Shown here piece after piece: positions 9,328-33,022 of a DNA stretch of 36,325 nucleotides (the first letter of the stretch is position 1; each line of letters starts with the position of its first letter). The translations under genes and the position numbers were made by a program. The stretch comes from a virus. The stretch spans positions 1-36,325 of the IMG/VR virus record IMGVR_UViG_3300043960_000006. One strand, written 5' to 3'. The notes under the pieces are model-generated. The model searched no databases, was not told where the DNA came from, and saw nothing but the letters and a program-made list of their open reading frames with translations.

Positions 9328-11605
9328 TAACGGAACATACGTGATCGTTCCAGCGCATAGCACAGGATGCGCGCTAGACTGCCGCGGAGCTTCCGAGGGC
9401 AACGGTGCGAACATATGGATATGGGGTCGCAATAGCAGAGACGCGCAGCTGATCACAGTGGTTAATAACTCCGATGGCACGTCGCGCCTGCTCTTTACGC
9501 TATCCGGGAAATCTGTGGATGTGGCAGTTGTCAACGCACTCGCCGACGGGCAGAACGTTCAGCAGTGGGCTAACTCGGATAGCGGTGCGCAGAAATGGCT
9601 GATCGAGGCAGACGGGAAGACGGTGACGATCGGAGGCGCGACATACAACACCTATGTGCTCAAGTGCAATTCAAGCAACTACGTGATGGATGTTACCGGC
9701 GGTCAGACCGCGCAGGGAACAAATATTGAAATCTGGACGGCGAACGGTTCTGACTGGCAACGATGGGCTTTTATCCCGCAGAACCCCGTAGCACCGGGCA
9801 CGTATATGATCCGGTCCGCGATCGACACGAATGCTGTTGTTGATGTTACGGGCGGCGCTGCCGGCGCGAACGTGCAGCTATACGGTGAAAGCGGATCCAA
9901 CGGCCAGATCTGGATTGTAAACGAGTACGAAAACGGCGTAACTGTGATCGAGAACGCCGGATCGGGCAAAGTGCTGAACGTGTACGGGAACCAGTCGGTA
10001 GCCGGTGCGAATGTGCAGCAGTGGTTTAATGATGGATCGAGCGCGTGTAAATGGTATCCGGAGCCTGCCGGGCAGATGATGATTAACGGCGCGACCGTTC
10101 CTACTTATCACATACGATTCATGACGGGAAGCGGGAAGGTGATGGATGCAACCGGCGGGCAGGCGAGGCCGCAAACCAATATTGAAATCTGGGACGCAAA
10201 CGGATCCGCGGCGCAGGAATGGGCATTTCAGCCATATTCTATTCTTGACACATCGCTTCCGGTGCCATCGGGAGTGCAGGCAATTTTCGGGAGCCAGACC
10301 GGAAATATTTTACAGATCGGATCCGGAGATGTTGGCAAAACCGGCATGATTTCAATCTGCGCCTCTTGGGTGTGCAACTGGGATGATTACTATCAGATCA
10401 GATACCGTACACGCGAGCGAATGATAAAGCAGGCAATCGGTAACTGGGACGTTTGGCATTCGGTTGCGGATCAGACACCGGCTAATCAGGGGTGGGGCGA
10501 TATTGGGCATGAAAATGCGAAGGTCGTAGTGCGCGGAAGCCGCAAGGAATTAAACGGCGCGATCCGCGAATTGACTATAGGATCATCGACCTCTGATTAT
10601 ACGGAGGTACAGATCGAAATCCGTGCGTTCAAATACAACGATAAGCGCAATTATATATATTATCACGGAAACTCAGTAACACAGCTTGTCAAGCTCGTGT
10701 GGAAGCCGACGCTCACGATCAGCGGCGTTTCGTGGTCGCCTGACGGGTTAAAGGTAAGCTACACTTCGGATTATACGCGGAGCGGATGCACAATTATCGT
10801 TGATTCTCTTGAAATTGCGGGGCATACGCTCGACGGCTGCGAATTCAGCGGAGTAAGCTCAAAAGGTTCTGTTACAATTCCGCAGAGCAGGGTCGGGCGG
10901 ATCCCTTCATCGGGCGATAAGGTTTCAATCTCCATGCGTATGCGTACCGATATGGCGGTGTCGGTGTCGGCATCGGCAAACACTACGCTCACCTTTAGCG
11001 GAACGCTCACGGTAAGCCCGACATACGCGGACGGCACAGGCTACTCGAAGATTGTGAGTTTCACAAAATCCGAAGAGGATCATGTATATGTTCAGACCGC
11101 TGAAACGTGCATGGAGTTTGATAACGACGCCGAAACTTCGATCGCGCTTCCACCTTTTGGAACCGCTTACGAGATTATCGTAACATCATCGAGCGGATCC
11201 GCTTGGGGAATTTCCAGAAAATCCTTCCCGGCCATGATCGGAACGGCGCATGTTTGGAACTGGGGAACGCGCTGCGCACTGATCACACTAAACGCGGACG
11301 ATCCTCCGAAGGTAACAAAAAAATATTCGCATGATTCCACGGAGCAGATCACGACCGGGCGAAAACATCCGGTTTACAATTTCGGATCAACGATCACGAG
11401 TAGCTTATCAGTTGAGGGCGTATATATGGATGATACCGATCACAACACCGAGAAGGATATGGAGGCGCTTTCGGGGGCCGGTCACGCCTTCTATCGTGAT
11501 GCGCGTGGGAGGATCTACCGCGTGGCGGTGCTTGATGTATCTACAGAGTCAAAGGGGATCGGATGGGGATCTGTAACAGTTGAGCAGAAAGAGGAGAGTC
11601 TTTGA
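9314..11605 (+). CDS. Distal-tail-protein-position structural protein with two N-terminal ricin-type beta-trefoil lectin domains
   Basis: First roughly 305 aa carry repeated (Q/x)xW lectin signatures: IWIWG, QQWANSDSGAQKW, WQRWAF, QIWIV, QQWFNDGSSACKW, IEIWDANGSAAQEWAF. The remaining 450 aa or so occupy the Dit position right after the tape measure. Confidence 0.65.
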   Translation: MAAINNGTYVIVPAHSTGCALDCRGASEGNGANIWIWGRNSRDAQLITVVNNSDGTSRLLFTLSGKSVDVAVVNALADGQNVQQWANSDSGAQKWLIEADGKTVTIGGATYNTYVLKCNSSNYVMDVTGGQTAQGTNIEIWTANGSDWQRWAFIPQNPVAPGTYMIRSAIDTNAVVDVTGGAAGANVQLYGESGSNGQIWIVNEYENGVTVIENAGSGKVLNVYGNQSVAGANVQQWFNDGSSACKWYPEPAGQMMINGATVPTYHIRFMTGSGKVMDATGGQARPQTNIEIWDANGSAAQEWAFQPYSILDTSLPVPSGVQAIFGSQTGNILQIGSGDVGKTGMISICASWVCNWDDYYQIRYRTRERMIKQAIGNWDVWHSVADQTPANQGWGDIGHENAKVVVRGSRKELNGAIRELTIGSSTSDYTEVQIEIRAFKYNDKRNYIYYHGNSVTQLVKLVWKPTLTISGVSWSPDGLKVSYTSDYTRSGCTIIVDSLEIAGHTLDGCEFSGVSSKGSVTIPQSRVGRIPSSGDKVSISMRMRTDMAVSVSASANTTLTFSGTLTVSPTYADGTGYSKIVSFTKSEEDHVYVQTAETCMEFDNDAETSIALPPFGTAYEIIVTSSSGSAWGISRKSFPAMIGTAHVWNWGTRCALITLNADDPPKVTKKYSHDSTEQITTGRKHPVYNFGSTITSSLSVEGVYMDDTDHNTEKDMEALSGAGHAFYRDARGRIYRVAVLDVSTESKGIGWGSVTVEQKEESL

Positions 11606-12645
11606 TGGATTGGGCGAAGCAGGGATACACGGATGAGATCAGCGTGCAGCTGATCGACCCGCACAACCTTGATGATGTGCGTGGTGAAATGAATGATTTG
11701 ATCTTATCCGGATCTTCGATCTCATATGGATATAACACGGACACGCGCGTATCAGCAAAGCTACAAACCTATGGCAACTCGTACATAGATAACTCGTGGG
11801 TTCGGATCATGCACCGACGCGCGGACATTACTAGAGAGCTTGGTACCTTCGTGCTACAGTCGGCTCCGGAAGTGTCGAGCCAGTACGGGAAAGGTGTATA
11901 TACCTACGATCTCCAGTCGGTGCTGTGGACACTTTCAAATGACTTGTGTAACGGCCACTTCTCAATCGGGGAGGGTGCTTACACAAAAGATGTTTTTGAG
12001 CGCGTTTGTAAAACGTGCGGCCGGGCGTGGATCCACAAGGCAGGAGCAAGGAATTACCGATATTCATCGACAAAAATATACGACGTGGGAGACAGCTATC
12101 TGTCTTTTCTTTTTGATATTTGTGAAAGCGCAAACAACCGGCTAGGCGTTGATGGGCACGGAAGAATCACGGATGAGCCGTACTACACGCCGTCGGAAAT
12201 CGAGGCAATCTGGACGATAGATGCGGACGATCCGCATACACTGCTTCTTTCGGATGAAATCACGGAGTCGGCATCTAATGATAGTGTTCCGGGGAGGGCA
12301 ATCGTAGTATATACGAGCGGAGATACCGAGATCGTTGCCACCGCGGACCGCGGCTCATCCTCCCCGTACTCATCCGCACAGCGCGGGTACATGGTTGCTT
12401 CAAAGTATCAGGTTTCGGATATGTCGCCGGCCACACAGGCGCGGGCGCAGCAGCTTGCGAAGCAGTACCTTGATGAAACCGCTGAGACGATACAGTTACA
12501 GTGCAAAACGCTTTACTTCCCGTGCGAGACAGGTGAGACGATGTACCTGATCCGGAACAACGAACAGAAAAAATATCTGATCCAGAGCATCGAGCTATCG
12601 TTGGACACGATGAATCAATCTTTAACCTTGAAGGAGGTGAGTTGA
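11605..12645 (+). CDS. Tail-associated (Tal-position) baseplate protein
   Basis: ATG at 11605 overlaps the upstream TGA (TGATG), with a GAGGAGAG RBS. 346 aa, second gene after the tape measure. Positional call. Confidence 0.5.
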   Translation: MDWAKQGYTDEISVQLIDPHNLDDVRGEMNDLILSGSSISYGYNTDTRVSAKLQTYGNSYIDNSWVRIMHRRADITRELGTFVLQSAPEVSSQYGKGVYTYDLQSVLWTLSNDLCNGHFSIGEGAYTKDVFERVCKTCGRAWIHKAGARNYRYSSTKIYDVGDSYLSFLFDICESANNRLGVDGHGRITDEPYYTPSEIEAIWTIDADDPHTLLLSDEITESASNDSVPGRAIVVYTSGDTEIVATADRGSSSPYSSAQRGYMVASKYQVSDMSPATQARAQQLAKQYLDETAETIQLQCKTLYFPCETGETMYLIRNNEQKKYLIQSIELSLDTMNQSLTLKEVS

Positions 12646-13541
12646 TGGATCGTCTTGAACTGGCGAAGGCGCTGACACGATCGGCGGCGGCTGAGAATAA
12701 GTCGGAAAAGCGTACCGCGACCGTGCAGGTGTCAGGCATCGCGACATCCGACAGTGCGGACGGAGTTGTGATGGTGGATATGGGCGGCGATTCCGTAACT
12801 TACGATGATACGCAGGCGGTTCCGATCCCGACGACCGTATCCGTGAAGCAGGGGGACACCGTGTCGATCCTGCTTACCGGCGCGGAAGGAACTGCGAAGA
12901 CTCCGCTCGTGATCGGCGTTGTAGGGCGTGGCGATGAAGCGCAGGCGAGCATCGAAAAAGCGCAAAGCGACATCGAGCAGGCGCATACCGATATCACCGG
13001 AGCGAAAGAGAGCATCAAGAAAGTTTCTGATAAAGCAATCGCCGGCGTAGATGTTGAGTATGCGCAGAGCACTTCACAGACGGACGCGCCGACAAGCGGA
13101 TGGCAGACGGATGCGCCTGCGTGGAAAGAGGGAACTTACATCTGGCAGAGGACGGCCACGACGAACGCCGACGGAGTGACTAGCTACAGCGCGGCACTGT
13201 GTATCACGGGCGTAAAAGGGGAAAGGGGGGACGACGGCGACGATGCGGTCTCGCTTTACATCGAATCATCGAACGGTACGGCCTTCAAAAACGCGTCGAT
13301 CGCGACGACGCTTACCATCGACATATACGTAGGCGGCGAGCTGATCACGGACAGCGCGGCGATGAAGAAAAAATTCGGGGACAGCGCCTATCTTCAGTGG
13401 CGCCAGAAGCCGGAAGGATCCACATCGTGGTCCCCGATCCCATCAACCGACCCGAGATTATCAGATAACGGATTTATCTTCACGCTGAGTGCGAATGATG
13501 TTCAAAATCGCACGGTTTTTTCATGCGACCTGATTTTTTAA
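12645..13541 (+). CDS. Tail fibre / minor structural protein (module-sharing, 1 of 3)
   Basis: TGATG overlap start. Contains EYAQSTSQTDAPTSGWQTDAPAWKEGTYIWQRT and SLYIESSNGTAFKNASIATTLTIDIYVGG, modules that recur in the next two genes. Confidence 0.6.
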   Translation: MDRLELAKALTRSAAAENKSEKRTATVQVSGIATSDSADGVVMVDMGGDSVTYDDTQAVPIPTTVSVKQGDTVSILLTGAEGTAKTPLVIGVVGRGDEAQASIEKAQSDIEQAHTDITGAKESIKKVSDKAIAGVDVEYAQSTSQTDAPTSGWQTDAPAWKEGTYIWQRTATTNADGVTSYSAALCITGVKGERGDDGDDAVSLYIESSNGTAFKNASIATTLTIDIYVGGELITDSAAMKKKFGDSAYLQWRQKPEGSTSWSPIPSTDPRLSDNGFIFTLSANDVQNRTVFSCDLIF

Positions 13542-20264: not shown

Positions 20265-20459
20265 CATCTAGCAGATATCTAGCACGCATATGCGCTCGTG
20301 TGCGCTTCTACGCATGGTAAAATGTAGAGTTTGCGCGGGTTTGCGCATATACGCACGATGTGAAAATGGACAAGGCGGCCATACAAAATCTCATGACGAT
20401 TCCTTTGCTTGTGCGGTTTTCTGGCGCTTTTATGCCACTCATCTAGCAAATATCTAGCA
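20265..20459. other. Candidate attP region
   Basis: Non-coding stretch just 3' of int. 20-bp direct repeat catctagca(g/a)atatctagca at 20265-84 and 20440-59. 10-bp palindrome cgcatatgcg at 20285-94, related gcgcatatacgc around 20343-54, and a TTTGCGC doublet. Confidence 0.4.
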
Positions 20460-21552
20460 TTTTTACGCTCTTTATTTCTTCCCGGTCCCGCTCCCTCATC
20501 TGATCGGTAACGTGCATATAAACTTCCTTTGTGATTCTGCTGTTCGAGTGCCCGACTCTTCGTGTGATCGCTTCGAGAGATACGCCAGATCCCGCCAATG
20601 TCGCGACGTGCGTATGCCGCAAGGCGTGCGGTGTAAGCGGCCGTCCTGCGGCCTTCTCGCAGTTCTCACGAAGATATTTTCTATATGCTTCGTAGTGGAT
20701 ATATCCGCCGTCGCAGTTTGGAATAAAGAGCCGTGACCGGTACGCAAAGCGCATCTGCTCCGCCGCTATAAAAGCCTTGATCCTTCGGCAGCAGATCAGA
20801 AGCTCGTCCTGCATATACACGGATCGCTCAGAGGTTTCGGTTTTTGTCGTCGAGATTTTCCGTATTATGAGGCTGTAAGTTTTGCTCACACTGATCTCGC
20901 GCGCCTGAATATCAACATCGTTATCTTTTAGCGCGATTGCCTCGCCGATCCTCAGGCCCGATAGGATTAAAAACTCCGTAAGCAGCTTCCACTTTTCGAC
21001 TTTCATTTCCGATAGAAGCGCGGCGATCTCATCACGCTCCAGATACTTTTCGGAATCCTTCACCCTTGCGGACGGCTCTTTCATCCTTTGGAGTTTATCA
21101 ACGTAGCTGATATTTTTGACATAATCCGCCTGATACGCCCAACGGATTAGAGACTTGAACGCTTTCAGCCTCCCGTTGTAGGTGCTCGGAGTGTCGGACC
21201 ACAGCTTTTCTGATGCAATCGGAGCAGTGAGCCGCGACACGATCGCGTCGGCTCCGATCAGGCGCGCCACAACACTGAGGTGCTGCTTATCACTCAGCGC
21301 GGTTTGCTCTTTTACGCTCTTGAGTTGGTGCTCATAGTATCGCTCGATCAGATCTCCGAGCGTGATTTCTTCCGATTTCGGCGCGGATGCCTTTTGAATC
21401 TTCTCCCGCAGGATCTCACGTGCGGCACGCTCGTCGGCCTTCTTCCGCGTCGGCTTGATCGTTACCGTAGCTGTCTTGGTTTTGCCGGTCAGCGGATCCT
21501 TATAGCGCTCATAGTAGCATACGTTTCCACTTTTCAGCTTCTGACTCCACAT
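20443..21552 (-). CDS. int: Tyrosine recombinase / phage integrase
   Basis: ATG at 21552 (MWSQKLKSG...) follows AAGGGAGGA. C-terminal ALRHTHVATLAGSGVSLEAITRRVGHSNSRITKEVYMHV fits the HxxR...Y catalytic signature. LRIGEAIAL fits the first Arg box. Confidence 0.9.
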   Translation of the reverse strand: MWSQKLKSGNVCYYERYKDPLTGKTKTATVTIKPTRKKADERAAREILREKIQKASAPKSEEITLGDLIERYYEHQLKSVKEQTALSDKQHLSVVARLIGADAIVSRLTAPIASEKLWSDTPSTYNGRLKAFKSLIRWAYQADYVKNISYVDKLQRMKEPSARVKDSEKYLERDEIAALLSEMKVEKWKLLTEFLILSGLRIGEAIALKDNDVDIQAREISVSKTYSLIIRKISTTKTETSERSVYMQDELLICCRRIKAFIAAEQMRFAYRSRLFIPNCDGGYIHYEAYRKYLRENCEKAAGRPLTPHALRHTHVATLAGSGVSLEAITRRVGHSNSRITKEVYMHVTDQMRERDREEIKSVKMLDIC

Positions 21553-21575
21553 AAAAAATCCTCCCTTGTGAAAAC

Positions 21576-21627
21576 GCCCACGGGAGGATATAATCAAGTG
21601 TGTGTCAAGGTGTGTCCTCTCGTGGGC
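21576..21627 (-). promoter_or_regulatory. Leader hairpin upstream of int, with an arm complementary to the int Shine-Dalgarno
   Basis: 13-nt arms gcccacgggagga / tcctctcgtgggc pair at 12 of 13 positions around a 26-nt loop. The minus-strand transcript continues GUUUUCAC, then the RBS GGGAGGA. The proximal arm contains UCCUCCC, an exact complement of that RBS. Confidence 0.45.
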
Positions 21628-21672
21628 ATTGCCGCCGCCCTCGGTCGCTCGGGGGCGGTTTTTATATGTTAT

Positions 21673-21729
21673 AAAGTTATCAAAGTTAATAAAAGTCAAT
21701 GCAAAGTTATAAAAGTTAGTCTAAAGTTA
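21673..21729. repeat. Six phased copies of AAAGTTA (one AAAGTCA)
   Basis: Copies start at 21673, 21682, 21692, 21703, 21712 and 21723, giving spacings of 9, 10, 11, 9 and 11 bp. The array lies between the ltp stop and the int start. Confidence 0.9.
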
Positions 21730-24587: not shown

Positions 24588-24783
24588 GTTAGATCCGGAT
24601 ACGGATTTTTCGAACTATGAGGAGTACCAGAGCAAATGGCTCGACAGCCTTCCTAGGTGCTGTAATTGTGGGGATCCGATTCAGGACGAAGATATGTACA
24701 TCATCGACGGGGAAAAATATTGCCCGCGGTGCATTGAGCGGATGCGGGTAAGCGTAGATAGCTACATGGAGGGAAGAGCATGA
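24571..24783 (+). CDS. Small zinc-ribbon protein
   Basis: ATG at 24571 follows GGAGGG. CCNCGD...CPRC four-Cys motif. Confidence 0.5.
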   Translation: MAWGIELDPDTDFSNYEEYQSKWLDSLPRCCNCGDPIQDEDMYIIDGEKYCPRCIERMRVSVDSYMEGRA

Positions 24784-25358
24784 TCAAGGAATTGCAGAAG
24801 ATTCAGAGCGAGTTAAAAGCCCCGAAGGGGCAGTACAACTCGTTCGGAAAATATAAGTACCGCAGTTGCGAGGATATCCTCGAAGCTGTGAAGCCGATTC
24901 TTGCAAAATATGGATGCTGTCTCACCTTGTCCGACAGCATCGAGCAGATCGGGGAGCGGATCTATCTAAAAGCCACCGCGACGATCAAAAACGGGAGCGG
25001 AGAGACGGAGAGCGTTACCGCATTCGCGAGAGAGCCGGAAGACAAGAAAGGCATGGATCCGTCACAGATCACCGGAACCGCTTCGAGTTACGCTCGGAAG
25101 TACGCGCTGAACGGCTTGTTCTGCATCGACGATACGAAGGACGCAGACACGGACGAATACGCAGCGCAGAAGAAGACGGAAGAAGCGCGCAGCTCTCTGA
25201 TTGATGAGATTAAGATCAAAACGGTCCGCGAGGTGATGAAGCAGAAAGGCTACACCACCAAAGAGAAAGAAAAAGAGTTTTTCAACAAGCCGGTTGAAAA
25301 GTGGACGATCCAGAATTTCAAAACGTTCATGGATTGGGCCGAAGGGAAGAAAGGATAA
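24780..25358 (+). CDS. erf: ERF-family single-strand annealing recombinase
   Basis: KYKYRSCEDILEAVKPILAKYG and GTASSYARKYALNGLFCIDD match conserved ERF-superfamily motifs as I recall them. Confidence 0.75.
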   Translation: MIKELQKIQSELKAPKGQYNSFGKYKYRSCEDILEAVKPILAKYGCCLTLSDSIEQIGERIYLKATATIKNGSGETESVTAFAREPEDKKGMDPSQITGTASSYARKYALNGLFCIDDTKDADTDEYAAQKKTEEARSSLIDEIKIKTVREVMKQKGYTTKEKEKEFFNKPVEKWTIQNFKTFMDWAEGKKG

Positions 25359-27984: not shown

Positions 27985-28347
27985 ATGAAATTCACGATAG
28001 AGCTAAACCCAGTTACCAAGAAGAACCACCCGATCATCGCAAGAAGCGGAGGTTATCCGAAACTGCTTCCAAGCAAGCAGTTTACGCAGTATCAGAAGGA
28101 TTGCGGAATTTTTCTTCCGCGCCCTACAACGCCGATCAGCGCGCCGATTAACATCAAGGCGGTGTTTTACATGGGATCGCGGCGGCGGTGTGATCTTGTG
28201 AATCTCTTGCAGGCGCTTGATGATGTGCTCGTGCACTACGGAGTGATTGCGGATGATAATTACAAGATTATAGCGGGGCATGATGGCTCGCGAGTGTTGT
28301 ATGACAAGGAGCGACCTCGCACAGAAATTGAAATCACGAAAATGTGA
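27985..28347 (+). CDS. rusA: RusA-family Holliday junction resolvase
   Basis: 120 aa. ...KKNH...LPSKQF..YQK...IKAVFYMGSRRRCDLVNLLQALDDVLVHYGVIADDNYKII fits the RusA D..N....D.L...g...DD pattern. Confidence 0.7.
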   Translation: MKFTIELNPVTKKNHPIIARSGGYPKLLPSKQFTQYQKDCGIFLPRPTTPISAPINIKAVFYMGSRRRCDLVNLLQALDDVLVHYGVIADDNYKIIAGHDGSRVLYDKERPRTEIEITKM

Positions 28348-28988: not shown

Positions 28989-29018
28989 AATCGCGGGAAG
29001 CGGAGAAAGGAGAAAGCA

Positions 29019-29363
29019 ATGATTGAATACATCGGAAAAACGGCGATGATCGAGCAGCTCGCCGAGGAGGCGGCTGAGCTGGCCAAGGCTGCTCTGAAGC
29101 TCGCGAGGATTTACCGGGCAGAAAATCCGACGCCGGTCACGAAGGACGAGGCCTACAAGAATCTCGTCGAGGAGTACACCGACGTCGAGACTTGCGCGAA
29201 AGAGCTCAGTCTCTCCGCGGATCCGGACATTGAGGCTATGAAAATAAAGCGATTTTACGACCGCGTGAATACAGTCCCGAAATCGGATCCATATGACAGC
29301 GAAGATGAGAGAGCCGAAAAGCGAAGAAAGGGAATCGTGGGAAGTGGAAGCGGAGATTTGTAA
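29019..29363 (+). CDS. Possible MazG-like nucleotide pyrophosphohydrolase
   Basis: LAEEAAELAKAALKLAR...NLVEEYTDVETCA resembles the EExxE...ExxD helices of MazG-like proteins. Not verified. Confidence 0.35.
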   Translation: MIEYIGKTAMIEQLAEEAAELAKAALKLARIYRAENPTPVTKDEAYKNLVEEYTDVETCAKELSLSADPDIEAMKIKRFYDRVNTVPKSDPYDSEDERAEKRRKGIVGSGSGDL

Positions 29364-29517
29364 AAGCGTGACAGGAATTATTGAGAAAATCAAAACAGAA
29401 ATCTGTGATCATTACTGTAAGTACCCGGCCATCTATGATACCCGGGAAGACAGCGACAAAGAGTACGACAAAATGATCGCAGAAGTGTGCGAGCACTGCC
29501 CGCTGAACAGGCTGTGA
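29293..29517 (+). CDS. Small Cys-rich protein (start uncertain)
   Basis: ORF overlaps the previous gene by 71 nt, so an internal start is likely. CDHYC...CEHC motif. Confidence 0.35.
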   Translation: MTAKMREPKSEERESWEVEAEICKSVTGIIEKIKTEICDHYCKYPAIYDTREDSDKEYDKMIAEVCEHCPLNRL

Positions 29518-29530
29518 AAGGAGAAAAGCA

Positions 29531-29782
29531 ATGGGCAAAGCAGCAAAAGAACGGCAGGTGATCGTTACGTGGTACGATCCGGCGGAGAAACTTCCGCCGG
29601 AGGGCGAAGATGTTGTTGTCACATTTTCCGGAAAGATAAACAAATACATCTCGTATGAGCATGCAATCGGAATCGGTGATTACCTTCCCGAAAAGGGGTG
29701 ACTGATAGATGGAATGGACTGGGAAGAATCTGACGCAATGACGATTGAGGAATGGTGCGATCTGGATGCTTATGAATTATGA
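29531..29782 (+). pseudogene. DUF551-like paralog 2, interrupted by an in-frame TGA at 29699-29701
   Basis: ATG at 29531 after GGAGAAAAG. 56 codons, TGA, then 26 more in-frame sense codons (LIDGMDWEESDAMTIEEWCDLDAYEL) to a TGA at 29780-82. The internal TGA aligns with the W of the GW motif in paralog 1. Confidence 0.55.
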
Positions 29783-29960
29783 CATACTAGATTGATTCCT
29801 TGGCGCAAGGCGCTTTTGGATACAGCGGCAAACCATGTTGATTTAAGCACAGTAGAAAGGGGGATACTCCCGAGTCCGGTTTTGATCAATTGAAAAATGG
29901 AAGAGTAACCCGCAGATCGAGTAGGCGGGCTGGCCGCTGGCCCGCAGGAAGGAGGACAGC

Positions 29961-30032
29961 GTGATAGTAAAGATTAAGAGATTGACGCCGATGGCAAAGA
30001 TCCCGACGCGCGGGAGCAAAGAGGCGGTGTGA
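29961..30032 (+). pseudogene. Truncated duplicate of the dUTPase 5' end (23 codons) with a strong RBS
   Basis: GGAAGGAGG, 6 nt, GTG. Encodes VIVKIKRLTPMAKIPTRGSKEAV*, compared with MIVKIKRLTPTAKIPTRGSKEAAGLD... in the intact dut at 31550. Confidence 0.8.
29962..30027 (+). repeat. 66-bp direct repeat, copy A (partner at 31551-31616, offset 1589 bp)
   Basis: 62 of 66 positions identical by my alignment, with a 35-nt perfect block at 29993-30027. Confidence 0.9.
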
Positions 30033-30115
30033 TCATAAGCAGATGACGCCGACAGAGGACATTGAAAAGGCTGACTGGTATCTGAAGAAGTATCTGGAAT
30101 TGAAAGGTGGGCAGA

Positions 30116-30463
30116 ATGGAAAACCTGATCGGAACAAGAATGAAACAGCTGCTTCATTCGCATTGCATGACACAACAGGATCTGGCAGATAAAGCAGGAA
30201 CTACGCCTGTGACAATTGGCCGGTATCTGAGCGGACAGCGAATTCCGGATGCACTGATGCTGAAAAAGATTGCAGATGCTCTTCATACATCAACAGATTA
30301 TTTTCTGGATGAAAACTATGCCGGCATGCTGGAAAGAACACACAGAAATTGGCTTGAAAGCGTGCTGAAGATGAATGACGAATTGGCTTGTACATCTAAA
30401 GGAAAAAGTCTGGATACGAATGACATTTTCATGCAGTCAATAGCGAGGAGACAGGATGAGTGA
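30116..30463 (+). CDS. XRE-family HTH protein (first gene of the cassette)
   Basis: ATG at 30116, 5 nt after GAAAGGTGG. HTH segment MTQQDLADKAGTTPVTIGRYLSGQRIP. Confidence 0.65.
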   Translation: MENLIGTRMKQLLHSHCMTQQDLADKAGTTPVTIGRYLSGQRIPDALMLKKIADALHTSTDYFLDENYAGMLERTHRNWLESVLKMNDELACTSKGKSLDTNDIFMQSIARRQDE

Positions 30464-30845
30464 TTTAATCAGCAGACAGGCGGCGATTGATGCGATATGT
30501 AAAGAAGGAACGAGACTTGAGCGGAATGGAACCGTTGCGATGTGTGAGATAAAGCAGTGGTGTATAGATTTGTTGGAACGGTTGCCATCCGCACAGCCAG
30601 AACAGCGGTGGATTCCATGTGAACATGAACTGCCGGAGGATTATACCGATGTTCTTGTATGGTTCGAGTATTTTCGATATGGCGATTATAACTGCTTATA
30701 TCAGACATACGGTATTGGCAGTTATAGCACAGAGTATGATTCATGGATGATAAATCACGAAACGGGATGGCATAAATTACGGGTTGTCGCGTGGACGCCA
30801 CTTCCAGAACCATATAAGGGAGGTGAACAGAATGAGGCTAATTGA
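30456..30845 (+). CDS. Two-module protein: ISRQAAIDA...LPSAQPE module plus DUF551-like C-terminus (paralog 3)
   Basis: 129 aa. The C-terminus WIPCEHELPEDYTDVLVWF...GWHKLRVVAWTPLPEPY fits the DUF551-like pattern. Confidence 0.55.
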   Translation: MSDLISRQAAIDAICKEGTRLERNGTVAMCEIKQWCIDLLERLPSAQPEQRWIPCEHELPEDYTDVLVWFEYFRYGDYNCLYQTYGIGSYSTEYDSWMINHETGWHKLRVVAWTPLPEPYKGGEQNEAN

Positions 30846-31323
30846 TGCAGATGTTTTAAAACAGCATATTGATAAATTGCCTGCACTCCCAGATGGAAAC
30901 TTTGCAGGAAACCACAGTGCTTTAAAAGCTCTTATAAACATGCAACCGACCATCGAATCATCCACAAACTGTTCGGAAATTCAGAACAGTTCGGATTGCA
31001 TCAGCAGACAGGCGGCGATTGATGCGACTTGGTTCGAGCCGAGCTACACAGACCCTTTGAACGTTCTAACGGAAGTAAGAGACAGGCTCAAGGCGTTACC
31101 ATCCGCACAGCCAGAACGCACATGCGTAAATTGTGGCAGGACAGTAAATAACGGTGGATGGTATGCAGACGGTAGAACAAGATGCCCAATAGAAGAACAT
31201 TATGCATTGCCGAAAGATGGGTACTGCCATTTGTGGGAGAAAAGGAACGTTACAGTTGACGATTATCCAGAAAGGAGAACCGATGACATACCTATTGAGT
31301 ATTTCGAAAGCGGTGGAAAGTGA
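30832..31323 (+). CDS. Protein sharing the ISRQAAIDA...LPSAQPE module, with a Cys-rich C-terminus
   Basis: ATG at 30832 follows AAGGGAGGTG. Internal CISRQAAIDAT...LKALPSAQPE. C-terminal CVNCG...RCP...CHLW. Confidence 0.55.
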   Translation: MRLIDADVLKQHIDKLPALPDGNFAGNHSALKALINMQPTIESSTNCSEIQNSSDCISRQAAIDATWFEPSYTDPLNVLTEVRDRLKALPSAQPERTCVNCGRTVNNGGWYADGRTRCPIEEHYALPKDGYCHLWEKRNVTVDDYPERRTDDIPIEYFESGGK

Positions 31324-31332
31324 GAAAGGACG

Positions 31333-31542
31333 GTGAAGCGGATGACTAGAGAAGAAGCAATTGTGGCAGTCAAAGAAGTCACAGGAATGTCTCTGCCGTG
31401 GAATGACAGGCATTATGAAGCATTGCAGATGGCTATTAAGGCACTTGAAGAACCGGATGAGAACGGCAATGTGAAATACTGGCATAAGTGCACCGGGTTT
31501 ATAAGAACCAAAAAAGCACGGAATGAGGAAAGGGATAATTAA
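31333..31542 (+). CDS. Hypothetical small protein
   Basis: 69-aa ORF (GTG at 31333 or ATG at 31342), last gene of the cassette. Confidence 0.4.
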   Translation: MKRMTREEAIVAVKEVTGMSLPWNDRHYEALQMAIKALEEPDENGNVKYWHKCTGFIRTKKARNEERDN

Positions 31543-31549
31543 ACAGAGA

Positions 31550-31981
31550 ATGATAGTGAAGATTAAGAGGCTGACGCCGACGGCAAAGATCCCGACGCGC
31601 GGGAGCAAAGAGGCGGCCGGACTGGATCTGTACGCGGACGGCGAGACGGTAGTTCTGTATCCGGGCGAGACGAAAATGATTCATACGGGGATTGCGATGG
31701 AAATCAAGCCGGGATTTTTCGGAGCGATCTATCCAAGATCAGGACTCGCAAGCAAGTACGGTCTGCGGCTTGCCAACTGCGTAGGGGTAATCGACAGCGA
31801 TTATCGCGGAGAGATTGGAATTCCGCTCCGGAACGACGGAGGAACGATCAAAGGGATCAAGGCAGGCGAGCGGGTGGCGCAGATGATCATCGAGCCGTAT
31901 CAGGATGCGGAGCTTATCGAGGTGGATGAGCTTGGCGATACAGAGCGCGGTGCAGGTGGTTTCGGGAGCACAGGGAGGTAA
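31550..31981 (+). CDS. dut: dUTP diphosphatase (trimeric dUTPase)
   Basis: AAGLDLYA, IYPRSGLASKYG, GVIDSDYRGEI, ERVAQMI and RGAGGFGSTG are the five classical dUTPase motifs. The ATG at 31550 matches the duplicated fragment; the upstream ATG at 31523 is possible. Confidence 0.9.
   Translation: MIVKIKRLTPTAKIPTRGSKEAAGLDLYADGETVVLYPGETKMIHTGIAMEIKPGFFGAIYPRSGLASKYGLRLANCVGVIDSDYRGEIGIPLRNDGGTIKGIKAGERVAQMIIEPYQDAELIEVDELGDTERGAGGFGSTGR
31551..31616 (+). repeat. 66-bp direct repeat, copy B (partner at 29962-30027)
   Basis: See copy A. Confidence 0.9.
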
Positions 31982-31988
31982 CAATGTG

Positions 31989-32363
31989 ATGATGATTGCG
32001 ATCATTGCGGTAATCGCTGCGTTCTCGTTCTGTGTGACGATCCTTTACGTCGACGGAAAGGTGATCGACGCGCAGAGCGATTATCTCACAGCCATACACG
32101 AGTGTCTTGAGGATCAGGCGAAAGAGATAAAAGCGCTGTGGCTAATGTCGGATTACTTCCATCACAGGCTTGAAGGGGGTGCAAATGAAGAGCATAGCAG
32201 AGCAGGTAAACCGCCATTATGCGGTGGTGTTAGAGCTTTACAAGAAGGCAGGATATATGCAGAAGGCGCAGATGTACGCGCTGATCAGTGCGCAGATCGA
32301 GGCACAGCGAAACATGGCCAACTGGATGAAGCGCGCCGGGAAGATCTCGACGAAGGAGTTTAA
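31989..32363 (+). CDS. Small membrane protein (3' extent doubtful)
   Basis: GGGAGG RBS, then GTG ATG ATG. Hydrophobic N-terminus MMIAIIAVIAAFSFCVTILYV. The last 60 codons or so overlap the next, better-looking gene and are Arg/Ala/Gly-rich, as expected for an out-of-frame read. Confidence 0.35.
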   Translation: MMIAIIAVIAAFSFCVTILYVDGKVIDAQSDYLTAIHECLEDQAKEIKALWLMSDYFHHRLEGGANEEHSRAGKPPLCGGVRALQEGRIYAEGADVRADQCADRGTAKHGQLDEARREDLDEGV

Positions 32364-32421
32364 AGAGATCGACACACTTTTGCAGGAGTGGAAAGCGGAG
32401 GTGAAGCGGTGCGGAGATTAG
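32185..32421 (+). CDS. Hypothetical small protein
   Basis: ATG at 32185 follows GAAGGGGGTG. 78 aa, helical-looking. Confidence 0.5.
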   Translation: MKSIAEQVNRHYAVVLELYKKAGYMQKAQMYALISAQIEAQRNMANWMKRAGKISTKEFKEIDTLLQEWKAEVKRCGD

Positions 32422-32552
32422 AGCCGGCAGATATAAAAGCAATGCCGAAGAAAGAATTGATCGAGCAAATTATCAGCACAGCGAAAGAGATCAGCACGGC
32501 AGTAGATCACACGATCATATTTGTGCCGGGCGAAAAGGAGAATACAGAGTGA
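32409..32552 (+). CDS. Hypothetical small protein (47 aa, below the ORF-track cutoff)
   Basis: GTG at 32409 overlaps the upstream gene. The TGA at 32550-52 overlaps the GTG of the next gene (GTGA coupling). Confidence 0.35.
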   Translation: MRRLEPADIKAMPKKELIEQIISTAKEISTAVDHTIIFVPGEKENTE

Positions 32553-33022
32553 ACGTTTTTGAAATCCTTCTTGCACCGAAACGTACACAGCGAAAGATCC
32601 AGAGGCTCGAAGCGAAGAAGCAGGCGCTTGAATACAGTCTGCTTCCGGGGGCGATCAGGTACGACACCGACAAGGTTCAGGCTTCACCAAGTGATCAGAT
32701 GTCGGAGCGTGTGACACAGATCGAGGGGATCAACGAGGAGATCCGAGATTTAAAGGAAATCTATCTGCGTGAGATTGAAGAGATCGAGCGTGTATGCGAA
32801 GGGCTGACCGGGCAGGAAGGAAGACCGGATGATGATGGCCGCACTGTGCTGATCATGTACTACGTAGGCAACGAGAAGATGGAGGACATCGCCGATCAGA
32901 TCGGGTATGCGGTGAGCTACGTGTACAAGATCCGAAAGAGGGCACAGCGGGAGCTGTCGGCCAAGATTAACGCCAAGGATAAAAAAGATAAAAAAGATAA
33001 TTTTATCTGTGATAAAGTATAA
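32549..33022 (+). CDS. Late-gene transcriptional activator, sigma region-4-like (RinA/ArpU/DUF1492 class)
   Basis: C-terminal RTVLIMYYVGNEKMEDIADQIGYAVSYVYKIRKRAQREL is a sigma-70 region-4-type HTH. It is the last early gene before the packaging module, the usual place for such activators in Firmicutes phages. Confidence 0.55.
   Translation: MNVFEILLAPKRTQRKIQRLEAKKQALEYSLLPGAIRYDTDKVQASPSDQMSERVTQIEGINEEIRDLKEIYLREIEEIERVCEGLTGQEGRPDDDGRTVLIMYYVGNEKMEDIADQIGYAVSYVYKIRKRAQRELSAKINAKDKKDKKDNFICDKV

Follow-up and report, generated by a model that had tools for sequence, protein, structure and literature searches.

A dUTPase locus in a rumen phage that is very probably the scar of a one-sided illegitimate recombination

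The window analyzed here is the whole 36,325-nucleotide (nt) stretch of the viral record IMGVR_UViG_3300043960_000006, and the subject is the locus of its dUTPase gene, dut, where a fragment of the 5' end of the gene stands about 1.5 kb in front of the complete gene. We consider it very probable that a one-sided illegitimate recombination joined two temperate rumen Clostridia phages that were related to each other, and that this locus is its scar. The locus occurs in three states in public metagenomes, both halves of its left joint (J1) are found intact elsewhere, J1 lies on a short microhomology, and each of the two copies of the dut 5' end has the sequence of a separate natural allele. The features of the locus, with sizes of proteins in amino acids (aa), are as follows.

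29947-29955, plus strand: Shine-Dalgarno (SD) sequence GGAAGGAGG, originally that of dut and now preceding a 23-codon remnant
29961-30032, plus strand: open reading frame (ORF) of the dut 5' remnant, with GTG at 29961, 22 more codons, and TGA at 30030-30032
29962-30027, plus strand: repeat copy A, a dut allele of the type found in relatives L116 and L120, with one private C>T change at 29992
30023-30027, plus strand: joint J1, a 5-nt GGCGG microhomology at the switch from dut to DUF3310
30028-30192, plus strand: 3' remnant of a DUF3310 gene (CDHKQMTPTEDIEKADWYLKKYLELKGG...), with the first 50 or so codons missing and about the last 54 left
30116-30463, plus strand: XRE-family helix-turn-helix (HTH) protein of 115 aa (PF01381, 4.6e-13)
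30456-30845, plus strand: protein of 129 aa with an N-terminal ISRQAAIDA...LPSAQPE module and DUF551 (PF04448, 8.8e-07; PHROG 15198)
30832-31323, plus strand: protein of 163 aa with an internal ISRQAAIDA...LPSAQPE module and a Cys-rich C-terminal module
31333-31542, plus strand: fusion ORF of 69 aa, with joint J2 between 31446 and 31457
31457-31549, plus strand: 3' end of a 99-aa gene and a 7-nt spacer, a boundary shared with phages of the Y type described below
31550-31981, plus strand: intact gene for a trimeric-type dUTPase, with an ATG start and no usable SD (gene callers start at 31523)
31551-31616, plus strand: repeat copy B, probably the native dut 5' end of the right-hand parent, identical to the allele of relative L122

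A repeat search gave copies A and B as a direct repeat of 66 nt with a spacing of 1,589, in which 62 of the 66 positions are identical and a block of 35 nt is perfect (29993-30027 and 31582-31616). Twenty mononucleotide shuffles of the window gave longest exact direct repeats of 13 to 16 nt. Once the terminal overlap of 127 bp, tandem arrays, and paralogous repeats within genes are set aside, copies A and B form the sole long dispersed direct repeat in the genome. The copies thus differ at 4 of 66 positions (about 6%): one is the private change at 29992, and the other three are allelic differences that predate it, at sites polymorphic among single-copy alleles. Copy A of L144, L147, and L148 is, base for base, the single-copy allele of L116 and L120. 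When the window dut is compared with every dut of the uninterrupted (E) type, 22 to 27 differences are found in 365 nt, the same divergence as between copy A and copy B. Because copy A and copy B each match a separate natural allele exactly, they point to two parental dut alleles, and the repeat appears to be the 5' ends of these alleles, about 6% apart, set in tandem, not an in-place duplication.

At the left joint, dut is cut short at codon 22/23 and runs directly into internal sequence of a DUF3310 gene. Full-length genes of this family (PF11753), encoding 103 aa in L154 and 111 aa in L155, are located directly upstream of an XRE homologue; these two contigs were reached via homologues of the XRE protein. 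They share 92.7% nucleotide identity with window positions 30023-30444, with blastn homology beginning at 30023, and the homology to L149-L155 stops at 30444/5. With a slash marking the breakpoint, the dut side of the alignment reads ...AAAGAGGCGG/CCGGACTGG (in dut, ...GAGGCGG/CCGG), and the DUF3310 side, in L154, L155, L150, and L151, reads ...CTTTGGCGG/TGTGATCATAAG (also given as ...TTTGGCGG/TGTGATCATAAG). The window has the left half of dut and the right half of DUF3310, GGCGG being common to both, and in the DUF3310 frame it reads ...R-CDHKQMTPTEDIEKADWYLKKYLELKGG... A 49-codon ORF right after copy A matches the C terminus of PHROG 236/11324. J1 has what is expected of an illegitimate joint, namely partners that are intact elsewhere, a shared breakpoint of 5 nt, and gene fragments on both sides, and it is a microhomology joint of the classic kind, located within two genes.

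The three states found in public metagenomes are called E, Y, and W here. In state E (L115-L122), the strong SD is followed by an uninterrupted GTG-dut with one copy of the 66 nt, which makes it the empty site. P0001, a protein with 98% identity to dut, has the N terminus MVLAGWPLARRKEDS-VIVKIKRL; here the sequence that precedes copy A in the window continues straight into an intact dut. The contigs of P0001 (L115-L121) and the frameshifted relative L122 align to window positions 29523-30027 and 31551-32178; blastn places these two segments at 9617-10112 and 10047-10674 of L115, with an overlap of exactly the 66 nt. The E-type alleles fall into at least three haplotypes, on different backbones. 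Judged by the N-terminal signatures of the members of the 90% cluster, E is the commonest state, with 24 contigs listed for its signature versus 11 for the right-junction signature MRKGIIKQRM.

L243, L244, and L245, all of bovine metagenomic origin, were reached via the cluster members with MRKGIIKQRM. In state Y (L243 and L245), the upstream gene and the SD are the same, and they are followed by a 61-aa gene, a 99-aa gene, and, 7 nt beyond the stop of the latter, an ATG-dut with a single 66-nt copy; the SD GGAAGGAGG does not differ between L243 and the E-type loci L115-L122. The 61-aa gene is Cys-rich (zinc-ribbon-like) and now uses the dut SD (L243 7537-8000; L245 380-844). The Y insert sits exactly between the dut SD and the start codon, and this interval of a few bases may thus be a recurrent insertion point.

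State W, the arrangement of the window, is present in five independent assemblies: JGI 3300044555 (identical), 3300061693, and 3300043961 and the Logan contigs of SRR16381462 and SRR16381250. One Logan contig, L144, covers 29583-31254 and so crosses both copy A and the left joint. The phage of 3300061693 has 96.6% identity over 7.6 kb and other replication genes, yet only 4 differences within 29000-33000. Because this phage diverges elsewhere but scarcely across that interval, the W block has one recent origin. Exact-pattern scans, in which near-identical records may have been absent from the collections, returned no hit for the 35-nt block in viral contigs, none for the right junction in metagenome contigs, and none for the W-specific left flank in viral and metagenome contigs. 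When four proteins (the 152-aa dut, the 66-aa ORF, the 143-aa dut, and the 56-aa upstream protein) were looked up as exact sequences, the results were W-type contigs only, or nothing; they contained no right-hand parent in its exact form and no derivative from which the insert had been excised.

An event in place within one genome, in which template switching or tandem duplication was followed by divergence and the E-type loci are excision products, was also considered. Recombination between the repeats would indeed restore an E-like site, and the phage has an ERF recombinase. The three ancestral differences are, however, polymorphic among single-copy alleles, so that each copy is an existing haplotype; the truncated dut and the truncated DUF3310 gene make W the derived state; and the E-type alleles are diverse, on their several backbones, and far more widespread. 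Two parents are the simpler reading because in-place duplication needs three later substitutions, each recreating an existing haplotype, and we regard the in-place event as improbable.

We would also give little credence to a recurrent deletion switch of the 1.5-kb block, formed by the repeats (with their perfect block of 35 to 45 nt) together with the ERF protein. If it existed, a fraction of each burst would lose the accessory block, bringing dut back under the strong SD, and within the population dut and the XRE/DUF551 genes would occur in two states of expression. The SD and GTG of the remnant would then have been retained since they are needed after excision.

On the right, window positions 31457-31950 are 92.5% identical to L243 7935-8428, and from 31457 to the dut ATG a single base differs, a G/A in the 3' end of the 99-aa gene. 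The right boundary is an older gene boundary, shared with phages that do not have copy A (L243 and L245), and copy B is thus the native dut 5' end of a lineage whose dut has always been without an SD. The intact gene itself is complete: it scores 157.5 bits against TIGR00576 (cutoff, 102.55) over model positions 2-143 of 143, matches PF00692 (4.3e-32), and aligns over its full length with dUTPases in the PDB (1e-32), with 8y1q aligned over residues 2-142. As a trimeric dUTPase should, the ORF at 31550-31981 includes the C-terminal RG..GFGSTG motif.

The remnant, whose 23 codons are VIVKIKRLTPMAKIPTRGSKEAV, aligns to codons 1-22 of the intact dut in L115-L122 and covers just the residues that precede dUTPase motif I. 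Its predicted pairing with the anti-SD is -12.3 kcal/mol, versus -5.0 kcal/mol for the intact dut if translation starts at ATG 31550, where the pairing is badly spaced, or -2.6 kcal/mol for ATG 31523. The stop codon of the 69-aa ORF lies 7 nt before dut, and dut translation is presumably coupled to this ORF, while the old SD would drive a functionless 23-aa peptide. Because the right boundary is shared with Y phages lacking copy A, the weak ribosome-binding site (RBS) of dut is inherited and predates the W event, and it is evidently tolerated. A GC-rich stem just 5' of the SD was considered and dropped (z = -0.14, not significant). In the E-type contig L122, the frame of dut shifts after about codon 106 (with GTG as codon 1), and the C terminus is altered (P0002; L122 10001-10474), and dut would therefore seem to be dispensable, or broken, in at least one lineage.

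A preliminary description of this locus, made from the sequence alone, had reported the repeat with the same identity, perfect block, and offset, a strong RBS and a GTG in front of copy A with a stop after 23 codons, an intact dut beginning in copy B with a weak or absent RBS, and four more AT-rich genes between the copies. These points agree with the results above and with the base composition given below. Its statement that the insertion displaced the dut start stands in part: the intact dut is without a strong SD, but the weak RBS appears to come from a Y-like lineage and not from the event.

The GC content of the insert (30028-31549) is 0.446, compared with 0.508 for the genome, which places it in the 4th percentile of 1.5-kb windows; the four insert genes range from 0.437 to 0.449, dut has 0.567, and the genes to the left have 0.53. 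The dip is real but modest. In profile scans with Pfam, PHROGs, NCBIfam, and PADLOC, the four insert proteins gave no transposase, integrase, or endonuclease and only the XRE HTH and DUF551, and the 163-aa protein had no family match. The XRE protein scores under the cutoff of the RstR-family model. A defense or antidefense role of the insert was considered and dropped, PADLOC yielding generic HTH matches to the XRE protein and nothing else. The module at 31096-31288 in the 163-aa protein recurs in many rumen phage loci with 88 to 96% nucleotide identity (most, 91 to 96%).

The first 35 or so codons of the 69-aa ORF match the start of a 288-aa gene (L123 6001-6105), and about the last 29 correspond to the 3' end of the 99-aa gene of Y-type phages (L243 from 7935; L124 5994-6056). 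J2 is thus a second illegitimate joint, inside the insert. No inverted repeat pairs 30028 with 31550, no cassette recombination site was found in the insert, and a consensus scan for promoters and terminators, limited to sigma-70-type sites, found none on the plus strand, with counts not above those of shuffled sequences. The block was not met elsewhere as a unit, and its pieces occur apart. The 1.5-kb insert is a patchwork with truncated and fused genes and not a self-contained unit.

ISRQAAIDA (about 45 nt) and LPSAQPE segments are located at 30446-30494, 30577-30619, 30994-31027, and 31095-31117, and they are found with 88 to 98% nucleotide identity in L083, L085, L093, L094, L100, and L112. 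In many rumen phages, ISRQAAIDA often has three to four copies per 12-kb locus, with unrelated intervening sequences. These segments look like portable module ends or recombination linkers.

That a discrete mobile cassette (a transposon, an integron-like element, or a homing element) entered dut and duplicated a 66-bp target is very unlikely. Direct repeats do flank the insert, and its GC content is below that of the flanks. Target-site duplications are typically 2 to 14 bp and initially identical; the 66 bp here far exceed known ones, and the two copies are different alleles. The profile scans gave the insert none of the three enzyme types named above, its ends are without terminal inverted repeats, its left end is a truncated DUF3310 gene, its right end is a boundary between genes that Y-type phages have as well, and only separate pieces of it, not the block as a unit, are found elsewhere. 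The preliminary description had proposed a discrete gene cassette that came in by recombination within the conserved dut 5' sequence. Neither half of this proposal survives: the left joint is a 5-nt illegitimate fusion into DUF3310, the right boundary was there before the event, the insert is pieced together, and the repeats are two natural alleles, that of L116/L120 in copy A and that of L122 in copy B.

Least probable of all is an assembly chimera of two co-occurring phage variants with a common dut 5' end, since, although short-read metagenome assemblies can misjoin at repeats and the Logan unitigs of SRR16381250 break within the perfect block (L162 runs to about 30012, whereas the first base of L145 is 29998), the sources on the two sides of 30027/30028 share just 5 nt, so a k-mer graph cannot produce the join, and the joint is present in five independent assemblies, including the single contig L144 and two full-length JGI contigs from other samples. 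The two findings that the preliminary description had said would overturn it, a universal arrangement or a chimeric assembly, are not what is seen, given the E and Y states and the five W assemblies, and the contiguous SD-GTG-dut that it proposed to look for in relatives is carried by L115-L122.

A one-sided illegitimate recombination between two related phages could have proceeded as follows. Parent 1 would be of the E type, with the strong SD directly before GTG-dut, and parent 2 would carry DUF3310, XRE, the DUF551 protein, the 163-aa protein, and the 69-aa fusion ORF, followed by its own ATG-dut without an SD. A crossover at GGCGG would have connected nucleotide 67 of the parent 1 dut, with the G of GTG as nucleotide 1, to the middle of the parent 2 DUF3310 gene. 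Everything to the right of J1, the complete dut included, would be parent 2 sequence or would have been acquired by homologous crossing-over still further right, and homologous resolution on the right side would be possible in the region from dut to the late genes, which is about 93% identical. The overall pattern would be that of homology-facilitated illegitimate recombination. The setting was presumably a co-infection, or a prophage and a superinfecting phage, and the enzymes that made the joint are likewise presumptive. Occasional deletion of the insert between the repeats by the phage ERF recombinase would be plausible.

Several points weigh against this reading. No contig was found of the exact right-hand parent, with the order full DUF3310, XRE, DUF551, 163 aa, 69 aa, dut and no copy A, which had to be pieced together, its left end from L154/L155 and its right end from L243/L245. 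Nor was an E-type contig found with the left flank of the window itself (29783-29960). The W copies are nearly identical over 29000-33000 (the 4 differences), so they count as one event, and the process is unreplicated. Finally, a later homologous exchange of dut could equally explain the allele difference between copy A and copy B.

The IMG/VR record of 36,325 bp is that of a complete virus, with a terminal overlap of 127 bp, and the phage is temperate and siphovirus-like. The genes that bear on this setting are as follows.

20443-21699, minus strand: tyrosine integrase
24780-25358: ERF-family annealing protein (PF04404, 3.2e-42)
27985-28347: RusA

An HNH-TerS-TerL-portal block lies downstream of the region with the integrase, ERF, and RusA genes, and the repeat locus sits in an accessory region with replication genes on one side and the late activator on the other. 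All close relatives are from ruminant gut metagenomes. A GTDB search with the dut protein gave nearest cellular homologues of at most 61% identity, in rumen metagenome-assembled genomes of Lachnospiraceae and other Clostridia; this search gave no prophage copy and no firm host assignment. The best reading is that the phage and its relatives are temperate phages of rumen Clostridia. Distant blastn against the INPHARED phage records gave zero matches, a search of IMG/VR with the dut protein gave a top match of just 61% identity, and an Rfam scan of the window gave no RNA family.

Three further observations concern the neighborhood and the relatives. The upstream neighbor of the dut remnant (29531-29782) has a TGA at 29699-29701, with the frame open beyond it; in an alignment with the intact orthologues of 82 to 85 aa in L115, L116, and L122, an invariant Trp (GW) stands at this position, which makes the gene a candidate pseudogene or read-through gene. 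A second indel lies just 3' of dut: window positions 32179-32524, which contain a 78-aa ORF (32185-32421), are missing in L115-L121 and partial in L122 and L243/L244. L243 has a gene for an ISL3-family transposase (PF01610) at 12087-13439 on the minus strand, between the large terminase and portal genes, probably an insertion sequence inside the packaging module of a related phage or prophage.

Novel joints made by illegitimate recombination have reportedly been described in mosaic temperate phages, both lambdoid (HK97 and HK022) and mycobacteriophages. The locus resembles these in the abrupt switch of ancestry, in the separate occurrence of both parental arrangements, in having most of its boundaries at gene borders (30444/5 and the dut start codon), and in its place in an accessory region between replication and late genes. 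It differs from them in that one joint lies within two genes and was not purged. It leaves 23 dut codons that are still translatable and keep their SD, a DUF3310 tail of 54 codons, and a repeat of 66 nt. Intragenic scars of this kind are expected in theory and are usually removed by selection.

Morons, which are said to be small genes inserted between two phage genes, offer a second comparison. Here too, extra genes of lower GC content stand between the dut SD and the start codon, and the 61-aa plus 99-aa insert of the Y type is a clean example. The differing base composition of morons is likewise seen (GC content of the insert, 0.446; of the genome, 0.508; of dut, 0.567). Unlike morons, the W insert holds truncated and fused genes. 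A moron would have a promoter and a terminator of its own; the scan for these, of sigma-70-type sites only, gave nothing above chance.

Homology-facilitated illegitimate recombination is reportedly known from the natural transformation of bacteria. The locus is like it in that the exchange has a homologous side, the lineages sharing about 93% identity in dut and the genes beyond it, and in that the other end falls on a short GC-rich microhomology (GGCGG, 5 nt), with a gain of foreign DNA. Unlike in bacteria, the partners here would be two phage or prophage genomes.

Recombinases of the Erf type drive phage mosaicism through exchanges on short or diverged homology, and the substrates tested for relaxed recombination by the Rad52-like Red-beta, RecT, and Erf had stretches of perfect identity of 11 to 298 bp (PMC3945230; PMC2327257). 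The phage encodes an ERF protein, and the perfect block of 35 to 45 nt in its 66-nt repeats falls in this range, so that Rad52-like recombination could account for the right-hand crossover and for any later excision. J1 differs from such exchanges, which need tens of near-identical bases: it has 5 nt and is left unexplained by that mechanism.

The locus is ordinary in kind, a well-resolved case of a known mosaic process, with no new mechanism or type of element. The mosaicism of phages has been debated between random illegitimate joining followed by selection and recombination at short homologies (PMC3945230; PMC2327257), and natural joints are seldom caught before selection tidies them. Here, one locus displays a raw intragenic illegitimate joint, with a 5-nt microhomology, two gene stumps, and an orphaned SD, and beside it the clean gene-boundary variants E and Y and separate sources for both halves of the joint. 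This makes it a useful worked example and possibly a natural substrate for measuring repeat-mediated deletion by recombinases of the Erf type.

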